This document shows, one piece after another, positions 53,771 to 62,790 of a stretch of 64,000 nt of DNA. Where the stretch lies: positions 608,001 to 672,000 of the forward strand of contig CAWGRW010000009.1 in NCBI GenBank assembly GCA_963825135.1. The letters are read 5' to 3'. Both the position numbers and the translations under genes were made by a program. This DNA is from an uncultured bacterium. GTDB taxonomy: Bacteria; Desulfobacterota_D; UBA1144; Nemesobacterales; UBA2774. Numbering within the stretch: the first letter of the stretch is position 1; the number at the start of each line of letters is the position of its first letter. A model generated the notes under the pieces. It worked only from the letters and a program-made list of their open reading frames with translations. It was not told where the DNA came from and ran no database searches.

Positions 53771-53798
53771 TTGACTTTTCAAAGTCAGGGTGTATCGT
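53771..53798 (+). promoter_or_regulatory. Sigma70-like promoter with an overlapping 7-bp inverted repeat
   Basis: TTGACT-16 nt-TATCGT; TGACTTT-TC-AAAGTCA at 53772-53787. Confidence 0.45.
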
Positions 53799-53830
53799 TT
53801 CAGATAAATCACCGCTACGGGAGAATTAAC

Positions 53831-54013
53831 ATGGAAATCGAACTTGAACTGCATTTAAAGGACGATGACTGGGAAGATGATGAGGACGAATGGGACGAAG
53901 ACGAGGAAGAATTATGGGACGAGGACGAAGATGAGGAGCTTGACGAAGACGAGGATTGGGACGAAGAAGACGAAGAGGAATGGGAGCAGGAAGAAGAGCA
54001 GTCAATCAACTGA
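53831..54013 (+). CDS. 60-aa hyperacidic protein (41 D/E, 5 W)
   Basis: GGGAG RBS, ATG at 53831, varied GAN codons indicating a coding sequence. Confidence 0.7.
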   Translation: MEIELELHLKDDDWEDDEDEWDEDEEELWDEDEDEELDEDEDWDEEDEEEWEQEEEQSIN

Positions 54014-54141
54014 GGGTCAGCTTACACAATAACGAACATCCCAATAAGTTTCCGGGAAAATCAAACAAGCCTTGAACTGAAGAATCCGACACAAGCCGAG
54101 CCGTTTTAATCTCCGGATTGAGACAACGACGGCGCTGTGAC

Positions 54142-54198
54142 AAAAAAAGAAAACCGAATACGGATGATGCCCGGGGCCGGATTCGAACCGGCACGGGC
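54142..54198 (-). repeat. Duplicate of the tRNA-Leu 3' end plus flank (distal att site)
   Basis: GGATGATGCCCGGGGCCGGATTCGAACCGGCACGGGC versus GGATGGTGCCCGGGGCCGGACTCGAACCGGCACGGGC at 59805-59841; similarity extends into the A-rich flank. Confidence 0.9.
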
Positions 54199-54290
54199 AG
54201 TTTCCGCCCCGACTGCAGATCCGTCCCGTATCCGTAGAATTAGTTATTGCGGGGAAAGGTCCGTTTATTCGCTTTCCCGCCGTCGGGATT

Positions 54291-54336
54291 AAAAAAAGCC
54301 CCGGCCAAGGTTCAGGAGGAGCTTAGTCCGGGGCTT
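54291..54336 (-). terminator. Intrinsic terminator, possibly the 3' end of a small RNA
   Basis: AAGCCCCGG...CCGGGGCTTTTTTT on the minus strand. Confidence 0.7.
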
Positions 54337-54421
54337 GCATTTGAACCTCTGTGGAAAGGTCGGTTAATTATATCCCCATTCCGGAAAAGGCGGGCGTCCG
54401 AAATATAAATAAGAGCCCGGC

Positions 54422-54688
54422 TATGAATTCACGGCAGCCTTTCTTATTGGTTTCAGTTACTACTGAGCAGCATGCAACTCACTTCTCTGCCGTCGGCCAA
54501 TCGGGTCCGGTTTATTTTGGGTTCAATGGATCATCCCACGAACACAAGCTTTCGAGTAGTCAGCCCAGGACGTCCGAATTCTCTTATTCATCGAATTCGT
54601 TGCTCGCTTGTAACCGTTTGCGCACGGCGAAGAACACTCCGACGAGCATAAGTCCCGCAGCGGCCGCGATCATGCCCCATTCGGAAAG
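54422..54688. repeat. Array repeat copy 1 (3' flank plus sorting-signal DNA, long 'NEFDE' type)
   Basis: Near-identical to 57099-57365. Confidence 0.92.
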
Positions 54689-55087
54689 CGCGGGGATGTC
54701 ACGGGCGATGGTCGAGTTAAGGTTGCATCCCTGGATCAATCGTTCCCTGCAATTATCGTATTCTTCGTCAGTAAGGCCAATGTTGGCAGAACCTATAGTA
54801 TCTTCAAATATACGACAAGCTTTGCCCTCGCCAATAAATACATCATAACCCAGCTCAAGTTTTTCACCGCCAGGCCTAACAATTTCAACTTGCTCCTCAG
54901 TTACGATTGATTCGTTGCCCGCTGCAAGATTACCGCCGGGACATAGAATATCGACGATTTCGTCGCCGCTATTCCCATTCGACAATTCAGCAGTATCACA
55001 CGGACAAGAAGGTATTTGCGCAAATGCATAAGGAGAAATAAACAGAACTGTCAATAATATAAATAGGTTAAAGCGCCTCATTCTCAA
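54584..55087 (-). CDS. IPTL-CTERM protein A (Cys-rich domain)
   Basis: Signal peptide; IPALSEWGMIAAAAGLMLVGVFFAVRKR; alternative start 55081. Confidence 0.9.
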   Translation of the reverse strand: MRMRRFNLFILLTVLFISPYAFAQIPSCPCDTAELSNGNSGDEIVDILCPGGNLAAGNESIVTEEQVEIVRPGGEKLELGYDVFIGEGKACRIFEDTIGSANIGLTDEEYDNCRERLIQGCNLNSTIARDIPALSEWGMIAAAAGLMLVGVFFAVRKRLQASNEFDE

Positions 55088-55162
55088 CCCCCCTCTATAA
55101 ACAGTTTTATATGCAAATAATAAGCTAAAGCGATTATAGCACTTTGAGGTTCGCGGTGCAAT

Positions 55163-55267
55163 ATGTGTATTGCCGACGTTGGAGAGACCAGCGACAAAGC
55201 AGGCGAGGCGGTAGGCGTATCGGGAAAGACTTACGAAAGATTGAGACCGTATAAAGGGAAGCCCTGA
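55163..55267 (+). pseudogene. Remnant of a phage ParB-associated HTH
   Basis: Translates as GETSDKAGEAVGVSGKTYER and is cut off at the repeat boundary. Confidence 0.4.
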
Positions 55268-55540
55268 ACTGCTGGAGGATGAGTACAGCAGAACAGGGCT
55301 TCATTTAAGGAGAACCGTACAAGGTTCCCGATCTGTTTATAGCAGAAATTATGAATTCACGGAAGCCTATCTTATTGGTTTCAATGACTTATGAGCAGCA
55401 TGCAACTCACTTCTCTGCCGTCGGCCAATCGGGTCCGTTACGCGCTCGCTTGTAACCGTTTCCTCACGGCGAAGAAGACTCCGACGAGCATAAGTCCCGC
55501 AGCGGCAGCGATCATGCCCCATTCGGAGAGGGTAGGGATG
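55250..55540. repeat. Array repeat copy 2 (hairpin unit, core and sorting-signal DNA)
   Basis: Near-identical to 56129-56418. Confidence 0.92.
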
Positions 55541-55944
55541 GGATTGATTGGCTGATTAATAAACGCGACAGCTCCATTTGAAAACCCGGGACCGATACAC
55601 CTAAATTTAATCCCATTTTCGACCCTCTCAACTAGCACGCCGCTGATCGTGAAGTACAATATATCCTCAAACCTCCACCCTTCGGGTACGACCTCTGTGA
55701 TCGTAACAATATCTCCCTTTTTTGCATTAATATTTTCCTGCTCACCAAACGATTGAATAAAAAATGTTGATTCCGCCCCATTCAGATTTAGTGCAAACTC
55801 AAACACCTCACCCACAGGTGCGATTTTTGATATTTGTATGAGGCATTGATCCTCATCCTGCGAAAAACCCGGTACTGCTGATAAGTATATAAAACCGGAT
55901 ACAATAAGAAAGAACAGAAAAGGTTGGAATCCAAGTTTAGTCAT
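55438..55944 (-). CDS. IPTL-CTERM protein B (Ig/prealbumin-like domain)
   Basis: GGAGG RBS, signal peptide, IPTLSEWGM tail. Confidence 0.9.
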   Translation of the reverse strand: MTKLGFQPFLFFLIVSGFIYLSAVPGFSQDEDQCLIQISKIAPVGEVFEFALNLNGAESTFFIQSFGEQENINAKKGDIVTITEVVPEGWRFEDILYFTISGVLVERVENGIKFRCIGPGFSNGAVAFINQPINPIPTLSEWGMIAAAAGLMLVGVFFAVRKRLQASA

Positions 55945-56071
55945 ATTAATCCTCCGCAAAGAGTTGACTTACGCCCATTATCACACGTTTAATAATTATT
56001 TGCAAATGTACAACAATAATTCTCCGGCAAACCTCTTATTCGCCCCTCAAAATTCAAACTGACCCAATACC

Positions 56072-56418
56072 CTTAATTCGCATAATTCACCTTGTTCGCA
56101 TTCATGGATGGACAGAGAAACAGAGCTATATAAAGGGAAGCCCTGAACTGCTGGAGGATGAGTACAGTAGAACAGGGCTTCATTTAAGGAGAACCGTACA
56201 ATGGTTCCAACTTGTTTATAGCAGAAATTATGAATTCACGACAGCCTTTCTTATTGGTTTCAATGACTTATGAGCAGCATGCAATTTACTTCTCTGCCGT
56301 CGGCCAATCGGGTCCGTTACGCGCTCGCTTGTAACCGTTTCCTCACGGCGAAGAAGACTCCGACGAGCATAAGTCCCGCTGCGGCCGCGATCATTCCCCA
56401 TTGGGAAAGCGTGGGGAT
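56072..56418. repeat. Array repeat copy 3
   Basis: 56072-56316 near-identical to 56942-57186. Confidence 0.92.
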
Positions 56419-56844
56419 GTTCGCCACTCCCTGCACATTCGTTATCACGCAAAAAGTATCCAATTGCGGGGTCACGCATTCCTCGATCCACCCACCCTCA
56501 ATCTCGGTAATATCGAGCCCGCCGCCGGGTTCGCATACGATTCCTCCGAACGCCCATCCGGATTGCGGTTTTTCTGTTATAATATGAGATGTCCCCGCCT
56601 CAACAAAACCACTCGAACCCATGGGGTCACCGGCGGTAATGAAAAACGTAAAAGTCTCCCCGGTTTCCACCACTTCGCCGTTGAATTGGAATTCCCTGCC
56701 CTCCGCCCCGGGAGCTACTTTGGTAGTTTCGATAAAGCATTCGGTAGGCTGGGCTGCGCTATTCCCCGCGGTCATGAATAAAACGACTGGGATTATGAAA
56801 ACGAATAATATAAGGCAGTTAAATGATCGAAAGATCCTCGGCAT
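56317..56844 (-). CDS. IPTL-CTERM protein C (Ig/prealbumin-like domain)
   Basis: Signal peptide, IPTLSQWGM tail. Confidence 0.9.
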   Translation of the reverse strand: MPRIFRSFNCLILFVFIIPVVLFMTAGNSAAQPTECFIETTKVAPGAEGREFQFNGEVVETGETFTFFITAGDPMGSSGFVEAGTSHIITEKPQSGWAFGGIVCEPGGGLDITEIEGGWIEECVTPQLDTFCVITNVQGVANIPTLSQWGMIAAAAGLMLVGVFFAVRKRLQASA

Positions 56845-56941
56845 ATAAACCTCCCCAATTCTTTTTATTCACGATATTACAACATTTGTGAGTATAAATC
56901 CAGCGTAGCAGCAGTACCATCCCCTTCTCGGTGTATCCGGG

Positions 56942-57375
56942 CTTAATTCGCATAATTCACCTTGTTCGCATTCATGGATGGACAGAGAAACAGAGCTATA
57001 TAAAGGGAAGCCCTGAACTGCTGGAGGATGAGTACAGTAGAACAGGGCTTCATTTAAGGAGAACCGTACAATGGTTCCAATTTGTTTATAGCAGAAATTA
57101 TGAATTCACGACAGCCTTTCTTTTTGGTTTCAGTTACTACTGAGCAGCATGCAACTCACTTCTCTGCCGTCGGCCAATCGGGTCCGGTTTATTTTGGGTT
57201 CAATGGATCATCCCACGAACACAAGCTTTCGAGTAGTCAGCCCAGGACGTCCGAATTCTCTTATTCATCGAATTCGTTGCTCGCTTGTAACCGTTTCCTC
57301 ACGGCGAAGAACACTCCGACGAGCATAAGTCCCGCAGCGGCCGCTATCATCCCCCATTCGGATAGGGTCGGAATT
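56942..57375. repeat. Array repeat copy 4 (longest; mosaic of copy 1 and copy 3 types)
   Basis: Left part matches copy 3, right part matches copy 1. Confidence 0.92.
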
Positions 57376-58166
57376 GGGTTTATTATTGGACCACATGAGC
57401 CCTTCCATGCAAGGCCATCGATTACAGCATCTACACCGTTCGAGCCGACCAGCGTTGCTTCCCCGGTGGTTACATCCACAATAAATAACTGCCCCAACGT
57501 CCCGTCGTTGGCATATAAAATCTGATTGCATTCATCGTATGCTAGCCCAACGTCGAGGCTTGTAGCAGGGATGCCGGTAGCACCTATAAGGGTCGCGGTG
57601 CCTGTTTCGGTCGAGACTGTATAGAGCGACCTTTCATCGGATATAGCATACAGTATGCCGTTCGCGTTATCATAGGCCATACCGGGGCCATGGAAACCTA
57701 CTCCAGAACCTATAGTCGCCACGGAGCCGTCCGGGAACTGTGCAGTAAGTATATCGGAATTATTGAAATCAATAGTGTATAAAACGCCCCCAGCCTCATC
57801 AGACGCCAGACCATGCCAGTTAGCCGAACCGTTTTGATTACTCAGAAACGTTATAATTCCGCCCGTCGAGATCGACCCGATGTCATTACCTCCTGAACCT
57901 CCAGGAAAATCGTACAGGTCCACACCGTAGAGAGTTCCCTGAAGGAATGAGAGGCCCGTTATGCTCGCATTGCCGTCGAGTGTCACAATCGGTGTAGCCG
58001 TGCCGTCGGATGAATCGATAAAATATAATACGGCGGGCGTGTTACTCGACAGACCAATCAACCCGTCAGGAAAAGTTTGCGCGTGGACTAGACCGGCAGT
58101 TAAGAAAAGTGTTAAAGCAATAGCCAAATTTATTCTATGTAAGAAGAATACGATAATTTTCCTCAT
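57261..58166 (-). CDS. IPTL-CTERM protein D (beta-propeller-like repeats)
   Basis: Repeated GLAY/GMAYD...LY...TG.ATL(I/V)G blades; IPTLSEWGM tail; ATG at 58166 with GGAGG. Confidence 0.9.
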   Translation of the reverse strand: MRKIIVFFLHRINLAIALTLFLTAGLVHAQTFPDGLIGLSSNTPAVLYFIDSSDGTATPIVTLDGNASITGLSFLQGTLYGVDLYDFPGGSGGNDIGSISTGGIITFLSNQNGSANWHGLASDEAGGVLYTIDFNNSDILTAQFPDGSVATIGSGVGFHGPGMAYDNANGILYAISDERSLYTVSTETGTATLIGATGIPATSLDVGLAYDECNQILYANDGTLGQLFIVDVTTGEATLVGSNGVDAVIDGLAWKGSCGPIINPIPTLSEWGMIAAAAGLMLVGVFFAVRKRLQASNEFDE

Positions 58167-58382
58167 ATTATCCTCCCTAATAATATTAGTCAAATTATAT
58201 TACTATTAATTAAAACTGAATACAATACAACTTATTTTTGTTTCCTGACAGCGGCTTATCCAGTATTCATTTTCATTTCCTTTTCCCACTTTACTTGGCC
58301 ATGATAAGGTCTATGGCTTCTGTGACCCCGTGATGGAATGTTAGTGTGAGCATCCCGAGGTGGAGATGGTTGTGCATTGAGC

Positions 58383-58877
58383 TTAAGCTCTAGCTCTCTT
58401 CAGTCTCAGCACAAAGAACAAACTGACTATACCCAATCCCCCTGCGGCCGCGATCATACCCCATTCGGATAGGGTCGGAATATTCGAAACAGCACCCACG
58501 TTCGTGAACGTGCAGGTGACGTCGCCGCCGCCGTCGCATGTGGCCGTGAAACCGTTATCCGTAATTTCGAACCCTGTCGCGCCCGTACTCTCGCACTCAA
58601 CATCTGAGAGCTCCCATCCCGCTAACGGCAGCTCGGTCACAGTGACTCTCGAATTAAAAGTGCCTCCATCCGAGCCTCCGCCCTCTATATTAACAAAAAA
58701 GGGCTCTTTACCGTCCGATGTGACCTCGAATGGAAATAGGACACCGCTGCCTTCAGGCGCCTCTTTTATGACAACTGCATTACACGCACCCTGCCCAAAG
58801 GCGGCTTCTCCGAAACCCACGAGCATCATAAGACCTGTCAGTACGAAAACTATAGAGAAAACACGGTGATCGAACAT
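58383..58877 (-). CDS. IPTL-CTERM protein E (Ig/prealbumin-like domain)
   Basis: VTVTELPLAGWELSDVEC...CTFTN; IPTLSEWGM tail; lacks the 3' repeat. Confidence 0.9.
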   Translation of the reverse strand: MFDHRVFSIVFVLTGLMMLVGFGEAAFGQGACNAVVIKEAPEGSGVLFPFEVTSDGKEPFFVNIEGGGSDGGTFNSRVTVTELPLAGWELSDVECESTGATGFEITDNGFTATCDGGGDVTCTFTNVGAVSNIPTLSEWGMIAAAGGLGIVSLFFVLRLKRARA

Positions 58878-58971
58878 TTTATAATCCTCCCTCAATTATG
58901 ACTTTAAGCCATCATAATGATATTTCTATTTCTAAGTCAATCGCTTCACTTCCCCTTCCCGCCGTACCCTA

Positions 58972-59155
58972 CACGGCAGCCGTTCTTTTTGGTTTCAGTT
59001 ACTACTGAGCAGCATGCAATTTACTTCTCTGCCGTCGGCCAATCGGGTCCGGTTACGCCCTTGTCCGTAACCGTTTCCTCACAGCGAAGAACACTCCGAT
59101 CAGCCCGAGTCCCGCAGCGGCCGCTATCATCCCCCACTCGGAAAGCGTTGGAATC
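58972..59155. repeat. Array repeat copy 5 (core only)
   Basis: CACGGCAGCC...TTGGTTTCAGTTACTACTGAGCAGCATGCAATTTACTTCTCTGCCGTCGGCCAATCGGGTCCG. Confidence 0.9.
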
Positions 59156-59565
59156 GCGGAAATAAGCGGGAGGTTGCGAATGATACAGGTTGCATCTCCA
59201 TCACTTGCGTCCTCGCACAGAATTGAGAATCCGCCATCGAAATTGGTAATGACAATGCCGGGTCCCGCGTCACATTCTAAACCGGCGAGCCGATATCCGT
59301 TCTGTGGTTCTTCATAAATTGTTACGGACGAACCTTCGGGAATGGTTCCCCCAGTGGGCTCGCCATCCACGAGTGTAAATTCGAACGGTCCGCCCGGGCT
59401 CACCCCTTCAAAAACAAATTCGAGACTGCCCGCTCCCGGCGCAGACTTTGTAGCTTGTACTGCACATTCTCTCTCCTGGGCGTTCGCACCGGATACAAAA
59501 AAACCGCCTACTGAGGCGGCTGCGAATAAAGCAATGCATATGATGTAGCTAAAGACCATTCTCAC
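59053..59565 (-). CDS. IPTL-CTERM protein F (Ig/prealbumin-like domain)
   Basis: GTG start with GGAGG RBS, signal peptide, IPTLSEWGM tail. Confidence 0.9.
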   Translation of the reverse strand: MRMVFSYIICIALFAAASVGGFFVSGANAQERECAVQATKSAPGAGSLEFVFEGVSPGGPFEFTLVDGEPTGGTIPEGSSVTIYEEPQNGYRLAGLECDAGPGIVITNFDGGFSILCEDASDGDATCIIRNLPLISAIPTLSEWGMIAAAAGLGLIGVFFAVRKRLRTRA

Positions 59566-59807
59566 GAAATATCCTCCTCCTCTAAATAATACGCATATCT
59601 TATTATATTTAATACATTATTGTCAACGTCATCCTTTCTTAGCTCGTAATTCATTCGAGATATCGGCGGAATGGATAATCACTCACTTCCCCCTCACCCT
59701 GCCCTCGGGCACAAAAAACGCGCTGCGCAAAAGATTAAAGGAGCGGAGTCATGGACACCACTTTGGCCACAAGCGTGATCGAGCTGAAAAAGGAAATCGA
59801 ACAAGGA

Positions 59808-59894
59808 TGGTGCCCGGGGCCGGACTCGAACCGGCACGGGCGTGAACCCGAGGGATTTTAAGTCCCTTGCGTCTACCTGTTCCGCCACCCGGGC
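59808..59894 (-). tRNA. tRNA-Leu(TAA)
   Basis: 87-nt cloverleaf with long variable arm, AGGGA-CTTAAAA-TCCCT anticodon arm, encoded CCA. Confidence 0.97.
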
Positions 59895-60015
59895 TTTCTG
59901 ACAATTCCGCCTTCTGAGACTGCCTAGGAATAATAACAGAAAGGAATGTATTTTACAGCCTTTGCCATCTCATTCAATAGCGGGTTTTGGAATGAAGCCG
60001 ACCCCATATGACCGA

Positions 60016-61332
60016 CTATTTCTTTGTTTGCAGAGGTAAACCATAGCTGGCTTCTCTTAAGTCCGTCTCAAATGCCTCATTTGTTTTATTTAAATCAATA
60101 TGTGTTATCACAGCATCATATAAACTCTCAGCTAGACGTTGTGCTTTATAGGATTCAGTATAGGATACTTGCCTACGACCACCGTGTACTAGAGAGGAAC
60201 GATATTCATACGACTCTATGATATCTTTTGCAATATCCCTTCTCCTTTCGGGTCTATCATCGAGAATAGTAGCGGCATTACGAGCAATTGTTTGGATCAC
60301 CGGTGCAGATTTATCTCCACTAGAAACTAATGCTTCTATCGCAGTATAAAAGAAAAGTAAGCGTTCAGATCTGTCTTCGGCATGGCGACCCCTAGTCAAC
60401 CAGCCCATGCCATGGGCGACACGTTCAGCCACAGTATTCTTCTTGTAATTGAAAATGGTATTTGAAAACTTGTCAAAATCGATTTTTTTGAAGTGTTCTA
60501 AAGTATTGTTATCTACGGTATAAAGAACTGGCATCGATCCACCACCTGCATTTACATTCCTATCTTGAGTCCGAATGATAATTCTTGGATTATAAATCAC
60601 CGGAGCAAGGGTAGGATGTGCCTCCTTTTTACCCCACATTGGATAGAACGGATTTTTATGATTTCCTGGGTAAGATAGCCTTATGCAACTAATTGCGATA
60701 TTTATTAGCCAAAAAGCCTCTTCTTCGACATTACTAGGCGAAGTATTTAATCTGACTTCCCAACAAAATGGAGGATAGAAAATATTTAGACCGTTGGAAT
60801 CTAAGCTCGTCGTCGGACTTGAACTTAGTATGAATGACCAATTAATTCGATCTCCTTGCTTAACATAGTCGTTTGGTAATGTTTGGGACATCCGAATTTT
60901 AACAGGTCCAACTTGTAACTCTTTAATATTATCTAGAAGTTCAATCACAAAATTAGGGGCTATAAATATAAATTCGGTTTCACTTTGTTGATCAACTTTG
61001 GCAGTGAAGTCCTTTACTGCTTGATCTATATTATTAGGATCCATTTTCGAAGCTATATCCCATGCCACCCTTTCAATATCAATTTCATGACCAGATTTAG
61101 AACCTAATTTTTTAGTACAGCTTTGGACTAGATTTGTGAGAGATCTGATAACTTCTGGACTCGTAATAAAAAATTTACCGCCATGCATAGCAAAGTTGAA
61201 AGATTGAATTGCTTCGAGGTTTTCTGCTTGGGACTTTGATGATGCATTTGACACATGATTAAAAAATACGGATGCATGTTGTCTTATTGTTGAGTCGCTA
61301 TACAGTTTATTGGTATTACCCTGTTTCCTCAC
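60016..61332 (-). CDS. HEPN-domain (ApeA-like) protein, candidate defence RNase
   Basis: C-terminal FYTAIEAL...YEYRSSLVHGG (RX4H); markedly AT-rich relative to the host genes. Confidence 0.7.
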   Translation of the reverse strand: MRKQGNTNKLYSDSTIRQHASVFFNHVSNASSKSQAENLEAIQSFNFAMHGGKFFITSPEVIRSLTNLVQSCTKKLGSKSGHEIDIERVAWDIASKMDPNNIDQAVKDFTAKVDQQSETEFIFIAPNFVIELLDNIKELQVGPVKIRMSQTLPNDYVKQGDRINWSFILSSSPTTSLDSNGLNIFYPPFCWEVRLNTSPSNVEEEAFWLINIAISCIRLSYPGNHKNPFYPMWGKKEAHPTLAPVIYNPRIIIRTQDRNVNAGGGSMPVLYTVDNNTLEHFKKIDFDKFSNTIFNYKKNTVAERVAHGMGWLTRGRHAEDRSERLLFFYTAIEALVSSGDKSAPVIQTIARNAATILDDRPERRRDIAKDIIESYEYRSSLVHGGRRQVSYTESYKAQRLAESLYDAVITHIDLNKTNEAFETDLREASYGLPLQTKK

Positions 61333-61414
61333 ATACTTAATTTACAATAGAAGGATTTTTAAATCTACATGTTAAATCTATAGAAATCTCTTACCACTGT
61401 ACAATTTTGTAAAC

Positions 61415-61481
61415 CTCACCCTCCCCCGTCCCTGAGGTGCCTTAGGTAGCGCACGCGAAGGAGCCGCTTCTGACGGAGGCT
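61415..61481 (-). repeat. Diverged duplicate of the 3' end of the rep-like gene (62039-62105)
   Basis: Encodes QKRLLRVRYLRHLRDGGG* versus QRRLLRVRYLRQLRDGGG*. Confidence 0.85.
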
Positions 61482-61484
61482 CCG

Positions 61485-61924
61485 TCACCGTCCGGGAAGC
61501 CGCGTCTGGATCTCCTGGAGCAGCCAGCCGTTCCCGTCCGGATCCTCGAACGAGGCAAACGAGAAGTAGGAACGGCCTTCCGGGTCGCGCCCGCCGACGC
61601 GTGGGTTCTCCACGGCGTTGTTGAAGGGGCCGCCGGCGTAGTGGAAGACCTCGCTCACGTCGACGCCGCGGGCGATCAAGTCGTCGCGGGCGGCGTCGAC
61701 GTCGTCCACGGCGAGGACCAGGTGGTCAGCCGAGCCGGGCCTGGCGACGTGATCCCCTTGCCGAAGATGATCGAGGCCTCGAGTTGGGCGGCGTCACCTG
61801 CACGCCGCGGAAGTCGCCGACGGCGACGTCGATGTCGAGCCGCCACCCGAGCTTCTCGTAGAACGCTTTCGCGCGATCGACGTCGGAAACGCCGAGCACC
61901 ACGACTTCGAGCTTCATCGTCCAT
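61485..61924 (-). pseudogene. VOC/glyoxalase family gene with several frameshifts
   Basis: MKLEVVVLGVSDVDRAKAFY..LGW and SFASFEDPDGNGWLLQEI lie in different frames; very GC-rich. Confidence 0.8.
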
Positions 61925-62039
61925 GATCTCAACTCCTCTCCATATGTCTTGCAGGTAGCCTGCCGACCCGGGTTACCACTATCTCAAATAAAATGCCTCG
62001 AGTCAAGATCGATTTTCCGCATCTTGCATCCTCCCTCAC

Positions 62040-62790
62040 TCACCCTCCCCCGTCCCTGAGCTGCCGGAGGTAGCGCACTCTGAGGAGCCGCCTCTGCCAG
62101 AGGCTTTCCTGCGGGTCGGGCTCGCCGGGCTTCTGCAGCTTAAACGCCTCCCTGTCGAACTCCCTCCGCTCCCGGGGCGTGAGCGCATGCATGTGATCGG
62201 CGGCTTCGAGCAGTGTAACTCTGTCATCGTAATCATCGACTGGAGGAGGCAGAGACGAAGAAGCGTGAGCTTCTTCAGGCGCGCGTATTTTCTTTTTGCG
62301 CGCTTCTTTATTTACTGTGTATTCATTCTCCGTGCTTCCTTTAACTGTGTATTCCTTAGGGTTCATATTTTGAACACCCGGGGGTTCATTATCTGAACAG
62401 GGGTGTTCATATTCTGAACGGGTGGGTGACGAATCCTTCACCCTCCCGCGCGTATCTGACTTTCGCTTCTTCGATAATCCGACAGAGATCCCTTGAGACG
62501 AAGTAGTTATGAGAGCGCCCCGGAACGGGCTCCCTGCGGATGAGGCCGGATTCCACAAGGCTGTTTATTGCCCTGAGTGCGGTGTTTTTCGACCCGAAGC
62601 CGCAGTCCCTGCATATCCTTTCGACCGAAGGGAAAGACCTCCCCGCCCTGTCGGCGCGCCTCATGAAGTAAATGAGGACGAGCTTCTCGTTCGCCGTGAG
62701 CGGCAGATCGAAAACCAGGTCGGGGACCTGAAAATATCCCCCGCTAAACTCAACCGGACCCTCTCCGGGCCCTCTACCGTACTTATTCAA
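62040..62790 (-). CDS. Phage/plasmid-type HTH replication initiator-like protein, frameshifted near 62445
   Basis: LTANEKLVLIY...SFPSVERICRDCG..SKNTALRAINSLVESGLI (HTH_36-like); continues as ...VQNMNPKEYT...NKE in the other frame. Confidence 0.7.
62361..62419. repeat. Three palindromic iteron-like repeats GTTCA-N5-TGAAC
   Basis: 62361-62375, 62384-62398, 62405-62419. Confidence 0.75.

Follow-up and report, generated by a model that had tools for sequence, protein, structure and literature searches.

Exchange of heads between sorting-signal tails in IPTL-CTERM surface-protein genes: a six-gene array in a tRNA-Leu slot

The sets of unrelated proteins that carry sortase-like C-terminal signals are known to change, and how a protein acquires or changes such a tail is usually left at gene duplication and loss. 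A stretch of 64,000 nucleotides (nt) from an uncultured bacterium (GTDB lineage Desulfobacterota_D; UBA1144; Nemesobacterales; UBA2774), hereafter the window, puts this question in compact form. It carries six complete, co-oriented open reading frames (ORFs) on its minus strand at 54584-59565, named A to F, each of which ends in an IPTL-CTERM sorting signal. Do the variable heads and the shared tails of these genes have separate histories, and if so, what joins them? A preliminary description of the locus had proposed that the tail and its 3' flank form a recombination anchor, in a dedicated integron- or MafB-like system parked at a tRNA. Here, the first part of this proposal was upheld and the second was not. 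The window is C9:608001-672000 of the source genome, G000 (assembly GCA_963825135.1), whose completeness of 94% qualifies the genome-wide negative results. Positions are window coordinates unless a contig is named; C1, C10 and C13 are other contigs of G000, further G-numbers are relative genomes, and L-numbers are stretches of relatives.

The count of six IPTL-CTERM genes was confirmed with TIGR04174, whose cut-off was passed by five genes and missed by A by 0.1 bit (20.4 versus 20.5 bits). The heads belong to three unrelated types, in agreement with the earlier claim of at least three: SpaA_4-like (B, C, E, and F), propeller-like (D), and six-Cys (A). SpaA_4 itself matched E over the cut-off and C below it, and B and F are 31 to 46% alike to them in amino acids. 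The D head matched DUF4394/DUF6923, with a weak beta-propeller match (E value of 0.01). No Pfam family matched the A head. Its fold was predicted from an alignment of 8 homologues at a predicted local distance difference test score of 89.6; the model found no clear match by Foldseek or VIA-align (best Z of 4.9) and no usable Atlas match, which implies neither a new fold nor a lack of known relatives. Two more E-type heads occur on the chromosome, with different tails.

When the genes were anchored on the I codon of the motif, all 15 pairs behaved alike. Between 1 and 17 of 30 nt matched in the five bins before this codon, and 23 to 28 of 30 matched in the first bin after it. In the second and third bins, 24 to 30 of 30 matched among A, B, C, D, and F, and 13 to 20 in pairs with E. 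DNA identity thus rises from chance to 77 to 100% at the IP codon, and the heads are far less alike than the tails. Over 75 nt of tail, A to D agree at 66 to 70 positions (88 to 93%), F at 60 to 65, and E at 53 to 57. The abrupt switch reported earlier therefore stands; near nucleotide identity after it describes A to D best, F less well, and E not at all.

Heads are exchanged between tails, and four lines of evidence agree on this. First, head and tail DNA were compared in 17 pairs. The A head is 75% alike at the nucleotide level to that of C9:2733277, whose tail matches the A tail at 45 of 75 positions, versus 70 of 75 for the A and C tails. Likewise, the D head is 74% alike to that of C9:286950, with tails that match at 38 of 75, versus 68 of 75 for the D and B tails. 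The other (MAG-type) tail class was carried by all six A homologues and by four of five D homologues that are at least 50% alike in amino acids; of six such E homologues, five had the same tail class with a different sequence. In addition, 19 of 23 cross-genome head pairs (at least 60% alike in amino acids; pairs not independent) had a tail nearer to that of an unrelated gene from either genome of the pair.

A direct head swap was found elsewhere on the chromosome. From the IP codon onward, C9:286258-286947 and C9:2188719-2189408 share 690 nt at 95% likeness, the next gene included; upstream, one copy has a D-type head and the other an E-type head. Each copy belongs to a tRNA island whose integrase is intact or broken; tRNA-Met and tRNA-Arg islands that bear an integrase carry D- and E-type heads. 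Gain and loss of whole units was seen between variant contigs: C13 has an extra gene unit of ~737 nt relative to C10, bounded at IP codons, and is without a ~1.3-kb unit of C10, bounded at FFAVR codons; C1 agrees with C10. On a smaller scale, the genes at C9:11634 and C10:223190 have heads that are 98% alike and differ at 8 of 14 nt in midtail and at 4 of 400 nt downstream. This is patch conversion. With such separate histories of head and tail, and with whole genes gained and lost at tail codons, the tail DNA does serve as a recombination anchor.

The tails are also homogenized locally. Class I tails at most 6 kb apart, with heads less than 50% alike, were compared with distant tails. In G000, neighboring tails matched at 60.4 of 75 positions and distant tails at 52.6, a difference reached in none of 5,000 permutations. 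The effect was also found in G003 (P = 0.0002) and G009 (P = 0.0012); G003, G007, and G009 were covered by parts chosen for IPTL density, and the pairs are not independent. Tails also duplicate alone: in three genomes, the ten headless copies located away from contig ends are each preceded by a palindrome of the CCCTCC/GGAGGG type. The breakpoints lie at the IP codons, after EWGMIA, in midhelix, and at FFAVR. They are scattered over ~90 nt, as expected from homologous exchange rather than from a site-specific recombinase.

What, then, is the DNA shared beyond the stop codons? Its extent is as described before, from ~80 nt (F) up to ~320 nt (D, in common with A and then C), but its nature is different. 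The "constant 3' flank" is mostly a hairpin-headed mini-element inserted in the basic tail codons, followed by the displaced old tail end, and the element is dispersed, occurring also in hairpin repeats and at tRNA ends. It consists of a 7- to 8-bp hairpin at one end and a variable body of ~56 nt. In the tails it measures 88 to 89 nt (B, C, and F), or ~173 nt in A and D, which have a further copy nested in the loop of the first. The old tail ends are still readable after it, as RKAAVNS-stop, RKAVVNS-stop, and RTAAV-stop, whereas the ends that the element itself provides read RLQASA and RLQASNEFDE. Farther downstream, B, C, and D share another 100 to 160 nt with a hairpin, and a related hairpin lies behind an IPTL gene in G007 (L038). 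Including this block, C and D are 97% alike over 245 nt; it has the same terminal base behind both and stops 57 nt earlier behind B. As for the core repeat, BLAST of the genome found five copies of an 83-nt block, all in the array; in relatives, related DNA lies in IPTL tails and also at unrelated sites.

Insertion of the element was supported by empty sites. A contig of run X3 with an F-like gene (96%; 21 differences in 548 nt) has a joint from 58987 to 59076, which skips exactly the 88 nt of the element. Another contig joint, from 54445 to 54619, omits exactly the 173 nt of the nested element of A and is not tied to the A head; joints at such likeness may stem from other organisms. Strict hairpin heads numbered 78 in G000; two shuffled versions of C9 had 1 and 4. 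Empty-site matches were found for 70 of 109 element copies, with 0 to 7 nt replaced, and the net insertion was 84 to 91 nt in 62 of these 70. The element is inserted in several palindrome families, at tRNA 3' ends, in IPTL tails, and in its own loop. Terminal inverted repeats are absent, the hairpin being at a single end, and there is usually no target duplication; duplications of 25 to 30 nt occur at tRNA ends and a few other sites only. A loose element pattern was enriched in genera g1, g4, and g5 of one family (27 to 172 matches versus 8 to 16 in the control) and near background in the remaining genomes of the 61 searched. A relaxed half-motif count (21 versus 13 in the control) was uninformative, and one element pattern had no match in viral contigs.

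Several candidates for the movement and targeting of the element were rejected. No Y1 transposase was found in G000 or in the element-rich G004, G012, and G017. Reverse transcriptases (of diversity-generating retroelements, retrons, or group II introns) and IS110 had no match in G000. Among 394 nearby ORFs clustered by BLAST, without a Pfam scan, no enzyme gene recurred beside the elements. The element body does not look like a guide, as no reverse-complement match to its own flanks was found in 59 representatives (P = 0.34 to 0.80). A weak direct match of body and flanks (P = 0.002 to 0.01) was attributed to tRNA-end copies, which duplicate their flank. Targeting of tails for their hairpins was not supported by a comparison of tail-end hairpin strength, which does not differ between class I and class II (-2.99 versus -2.76 kcal/mol).

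Further arrangements of the element were noted in passing. Rows of elements stand behind tRNA-Arg and tRNA-Glu genes (G000:C9:86262-86700, 331006-331330, and 368257-369300), and every unit repeats 20 to 30 nt of the tRNA 3' end. In G009, the region of L033:5802 has an IPTL tail with three elements, nested successively; a D-type gene is nearby, and the order matches that of E and D in the array.

Mosaic histories, breakpoints in tail codons, local homogenization, and insertion of the element are all seen in these genomes, and the array is probably the product of ordinary (RecA-type) recombination among short tail repeats. The 75 to 100 nt that encode the sorting signal, present in ~74 copies in the genome, would act as short homology. 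Homologous recombination, presumably by RecA, which is present in the genome, would convert one tail to another, pop whole promoter-head-tail units into and out of arrays, and join a head to a foreign tail with its 3' flank. Islands targeted to tRNAs may carry some IPTL genes between loci and supply promoter-head units. In the window, the old integrase-free tRNA-Leu slot would have gathered six IPTL genes. The mini-element may then have entered one tail and spread with it, lengthening the homology to 180 to 290 nt, and A to D would have converged. The enzyme, the order of these events, and any benefit to the cell are what we infer.

Some observations weigh against recombination among tail repeats as a full account. 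A class II head that moves to a tail of class I has only ~30 nt of homology, which is short for RecA. The upstream junction of each unit is nonhomologous, which calls for a further step that this account does not explain. Rearrangement of the array itself was not seen in any read set, none of the contigs listed spans it, and the D junction is unbridged among the pieces listed. The E tail escaped homogenization. C13 is rich in frameshifts and 92 to 94% alike to C10, and it may represent another species or a partial misassembly. The neighbor-tail effect was not significant in G007 (P = 0.11), and the test in G000 includes the array itself and uses a crude tail-class rule.

A more far-reaching reading, which we consider unlikely, is that of a genome-wide shuffling of surface proteins in Dadabacteria. 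The sorting-signal DNA would be the exchange site, the lineage-specific, self-nesting ~88-nt hairpin element would mark tails for cutting, and heads from any locus or island would be captured onto an active tail. With a putative hairpin-recognizing enzyme that moves the element, this would be an enzyme-assisted system comparable to integron and polymorphic-toxin arrays, but of reversed polarity.

Another possibility, quite unlikely in our estimate, is that the shuffling is promoted by the element or a nuclease and is not passive, with a hairpin-specific single-strand nuclease that cuts by the tails. The candidate cutters are an Ssn-like GIY-YIG protein, DUF559, or the putative mobilizer of the mini-element; the genome has one small GIY-YIG gene and one DUF559 gene. 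SsnA is described as cutting single-stranded DNA near NTS hairpins and modulating DNA integration in Neisseria (PMC11893778). The element is confined to class I tails (12 of 87, versus 0 of 42 class II tails, in the examined regions of four genomes). The five element-bearing tails of the array are homogenized and the element-free E is not, and the palindrome ahead of all ten headless tail copies would also fit a cutter. However, G003 homogenizes its tails although none of 30 bears the element, and the clearest head swap, that of the 690-nt pair, involves a class II tail that is free of the element. Of 31 genomes, 29 have GIY-YIG matches, whether or not the element is present, Y1 transposases do not track it, and the comparison of element body and flanks gave no guide-like match.

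Plain old tandem duplication, after which the heads diverged and the tails were held by selection, is improbable. It would suit B, C, E, and F, which form one fold family at the 31 to 46% likeness noted above, and duplication and loss are described as frequent in PEP-CTERM sets (PMC1569441). Nevertheless, A and D have 260 of 267 nt of tail and flank in common despite heads that are unrelated to the others. Synonymous tail codons agree more often inside the array (mean of 0.67) than when array tails are set against further tails of their class (0.45), and an inserted element cannot be conserved by selection. The nearest relatives of the heads lie at other loci with other tails. Duplication is thus largely refuted by the other-class tails of homologues and by the 690-nt head swap, and it survives as the origin of the B/C/E/F family.

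The dedicated site-specific cassette system of the preliminary description, integron- or MafB-like, at tRNA-Leu and recombining at the tail plus 3' flank, is more improbable still. The regular unit structure, the identical end base of the shared block behind C and D, the att-like tRNA repeat that bounds the array, and the gain and loss of whole units in C13 and C10 would suit it. On the other side, the block behind B ends elsewhere, breakpoints vary between events, and the same shuffling occurs in IPTL clusters far from tRNAs. Integrons are defined by IntI, attI, and attC. The best match to the integron integrase model (TIGR02249) reached 88 bits versus a cut-off of 265, and a simple pattern search of both strands at 54100-59900 found no attC-like RYYYAAC...GTTRRRY pair 30 to 130 nt apart. 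Like an integron, the array consists of tandem single-gene units with a repeated, hairpin-bearing 3' sequence between them; unlike in an integron, the repeat includes coding sequence and the breakpoints are not fixed.

The array also shares features with the MafB, CdiA, and Rhs polymorphic-toxin loci. There, variable domains are described as recombining at a short conserved junction motif, in islands with several alternative modules (PMC4287609). Exchange at a conserved junction motif was found here as well, but with reversed polarity, in six complete genes with their own upstream regions and with donors throughout the genome. All six ORFs have start codons, and no silent or truncated cassettes accompany a full-length gene; no other same-strand ORF of at least 80 amino acids lies between the array genes. 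Toxin domains and immunity genes were absent among the families matched in the array by Pfam and NCBIfam profile scans. The locus works like a MafB locus of reversed polarity and is neither an integron nor a MafB system.

The idea that the mosaic array is an assembly artifact of a mixed-strain long-read genome, prompted by the strain-variant contigs, the frameshifts, and the lack of a spanning short-read contig among those listed, is very improbable, since contigs of four public runs from three studies, one or more of which may be related to the source sample, bridge five of the six head-tail junctions (A, B, C, E, and F) with 0 to 3 differences, the copies carry specific substitutions, and like mosaics occur in other genomes. 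None of the results that the preliminary description named as refuting its proposal was obtained: the array is absent from this site in the informative relatives, the heads are much less alike than the tails, and contigs bridge most head-tail junctions.

The mini-element can be set beside other short repeats. REP and CGTC repeats, miniature inverted-repeat transposable elements (MITEs), and the neisserial NTS/SRM repeats are described as short, gene-less hairpin repeats, some of them fused to ORF ends and some without a known mobilizer, and neisserial mosaic repeats have been linked to surface-gene recombination (PMC3733652, PMC3184786, and PMC11893778). The present element differs from these in its one-end hairpin with a ~56-nt body, in nesting in its own loop, and in its enrichment in only three genera. 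The terminal inverted repeats of MITEs were not found and target-site duplication is the exception; the associated Y1 transposase of the REP/RAYT type was not found in G000 or the element-rich genomes named above.

The array occupies a 5.6-kb slot that is bounded on one side by tRNA-Leu(TAA) and on the other by 55 nt that repeat its 3' end (Table 1). This scar is at the same place in six of eight informative same-genus genomes; G001 was left out of the comparison because its contig ends too early. In these relatives, the slot holds 0.7 to 3.2 kb of other cargo, or >15 kb in G006, encoding DUF4256, AlbA_2, polyketide-cyclase-like, HD/HAMP, and PqqD proteins, and none of the eight has an IPTL gene there. 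No match to tyrosine recombinases (PF00589) lies within the window; all eight matches of the genome are outside it. These last two results also count against a cassette system at this site. Since relatives share the scar and hold unrelated cargo, and since the window has no tyrosine recombinase, the slot is an old integration hot spot whose scar is older than its present cargo, and the array is the current cargo. As in tRNA-targeted islands, a tRNA 3'-end duplication bounds strain-variable cargo; in contrast to them, the slot has no integrase of its own and the scar predates the cargo. Elsewhere, the tRNA-Arg(TCT) island at G000:C9:2187941-2203248 is bounded by a perfect end repeat of 73 nt and contains a frameshifted E-type gene and a split integrase.

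Table 1. Features of the array and its slot (window coordinates)
Feature	Position	Strand	Remark
Displaced former tail end of A (RKAAVNS-stop)	54422..54444	-	Same ending as element-free tails elsewhere in genome
55-nt copy of tRNA-Leu(TAA) 3' end (att-like scar), far boundary	54144..54198	-	89% identical to 59787-59841
Nested double mini-element (~173 nt) in A, giving its new last residues and stop	54445..54618	-	
Gene A: six-Cys head without a catalogued family, IPAL tail	54584..55087	-	I codon 54697
Shortened copy of further shared 3' block (with hairpin) behind B	55250..55349	-	
88-nt mini-element in B tail, then decayed displaced tail end	55373..55460	-	
Gene B: Ig/prealbumin-like head (by similarity to C, E, and F), IPTL tail	55438..55959	-	I codon 55539
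Further shared 3' block behind C	56072..56228	-	Same end point as behind D
88-nt mini-element in C tail, then displaced RKAVVNS-stop	56252..56339	-	
Gene C: SpaA_4-like head (below cut-off), IPTL tail	56317..56844	-	I codon 56418
Further shared 3' block behind D	56942..57098	-	
Nested double mini-element in D tail	57122..57295	-	With tail, 260/267 identical to that of A
Gene D: DUF4394/DUF6923 propeller-like head, IPTL tail	57261..58193	-	I codon 57374; likely start ~58166
Gene E: SpaA_4 head, own unhomogenized tail, element-free	58383..58895	-	I codon 58481
88- to 89-nt mini-element in F tail, then displaced RTAAV-stop	58987..59075	-	
Gene F: Ig/prealbumin-like head, IPTL tail	59053..59565	-	I codon 59154
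tRNA-Leu(TAA), near slot boundary	59808..59894	-	

Sigma-70-like sites lie upstream of F, E, D, and B, but the total of 13 compares with 8.2 ± 2.8 in shuffles. A and E have ~70 nt of upstream DNA in common with their paralogues; thus, units keep their own upstream DNA. An Rfam scan returned two tRNAs and nothing else. With the C head as a metagenome query, a single relative at 49% was obtained and a second copy of the array was not found.

The surroundings of the array hold other variable DNA. Between B and A, a unique spacer (55160-55258, plus strand) can be read as a short helix-turn-helix-like peptide, which we take to resemble phage ParB-type proteins; it suggests that mobile DNA came in with A. 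Between tRNA-Leu and tRNA-Cys (60016-62790) are a 438-amino-acid ORF of 38% G+C without a family match and a helix-turn-helix fragment of a phage replication initiator, and in relatives this interval varies from ~40 nt to 5.6 kb. At 53771-54013 (plus strand), an 80-amino-acid protein composed mostly of Asp/Glu/Trp repeats, without a family match, is conserved beside fbp in relatives. In G011, the same tRNA-Leu slot (L012:6518-16222) holds three tandem pairs of exported-looking proteins of ~350 and ~650 amino acids, without NCBIfam or Pfam matches. At the C terminus of the larger ones, a Pro/Thr linker is followed by GSCAIA, a hydrophobic stretch, and basic residues, which resembles a Cys-type sorting signal. 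The slot gathers surface-protein arrays, in G011 with another tail.

Genome-wide, a motif scan counted 74 IPTL ORFs in the assembly, with variant contigs included, and a hidden Markov model search counted 77; same-genus genomes have 6 to 72 each. As for the processing enzyme, one exosortase H match passed the cut-off, at C9:944910, elsewhere on the chromosome, and all nine same-genus relatives have one. XrtH (exosortase H) pairs with IPTL-CTERM, and this pairing fits the co-occurrence in these genomes. By eye, the N termini of all six array products are hydrophobic and end in A-x-A/G-Q. The products would be exported and then anchored or processed via IPTL-CTERM, presumably by the single exosortase H. 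The element nature of the 3' DNA, the closing 55-nt tRNA repeat (54144-54198), the ~74 genome-wide genes, and the one XrtH go beyond the preliminary description.

Two features of the genomic distribution were noted. On C9, 15 of 36 IPTL genes lie at most 6 kb from a tRNA gene or copy, a zone that makes up 15% of the contig; the genes form few clusters, so the figures do not amount to a test. A noncoding repeat of ~250 to 350 nt (14-mers up to 113 times) is concentrated at G000:C10:69000-224000, C9:1-82000, and C9:2.45-2.71 Mb, regions that hold most IPTL clusters; it is absent from the window.

With the known IPTL-CTERM (TIGR04174/PF18203)/exosortase H (TIGR04177) and PEP-CTERM/EpsH systems, the genes described here have in common the motif, the membrane helix, and the basic end. 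The sets are also alike in having many unrelated heads per genome, one enzyme elsewhere, and rapid gain and loss, as reported for PEP-CTERM, where turnover is ascribed to duplication and loss (PMC1569441). Here, by contrast, the breakpoints, resolved to the nucleotide, show that exchange takes place within the DNA of the sorting signal, and an inserted element has rewritten five tails. An IPTL-CTERM protein is described as the S-layer protein of Methylomirabilis lanthanidiphila (PMC8671808), and the available part of a preprint on related sorting signals (10.1101/2023.06.07.544157) does not mention IPTL or XrtH. In the open-access literature searched, supplements excluded, no description of recombination in sorting-signal DNA or of the 88-nt element was found.

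The exact breakpoints found here make the signal's own coding DNA the exchange point, and with ~74 tails the genome possesses a built-in means of reshuffling its surface proteins. In addition, a small, mobile-looking element rewrites protein C termini without disabling the motif. The question can be tested in any PEP-CTERM-like system with strain-level genomes. On present evidence, the phenomenon is well supported as a shuffling of presumed exosortase H substrates and not as a new dedicated machine.

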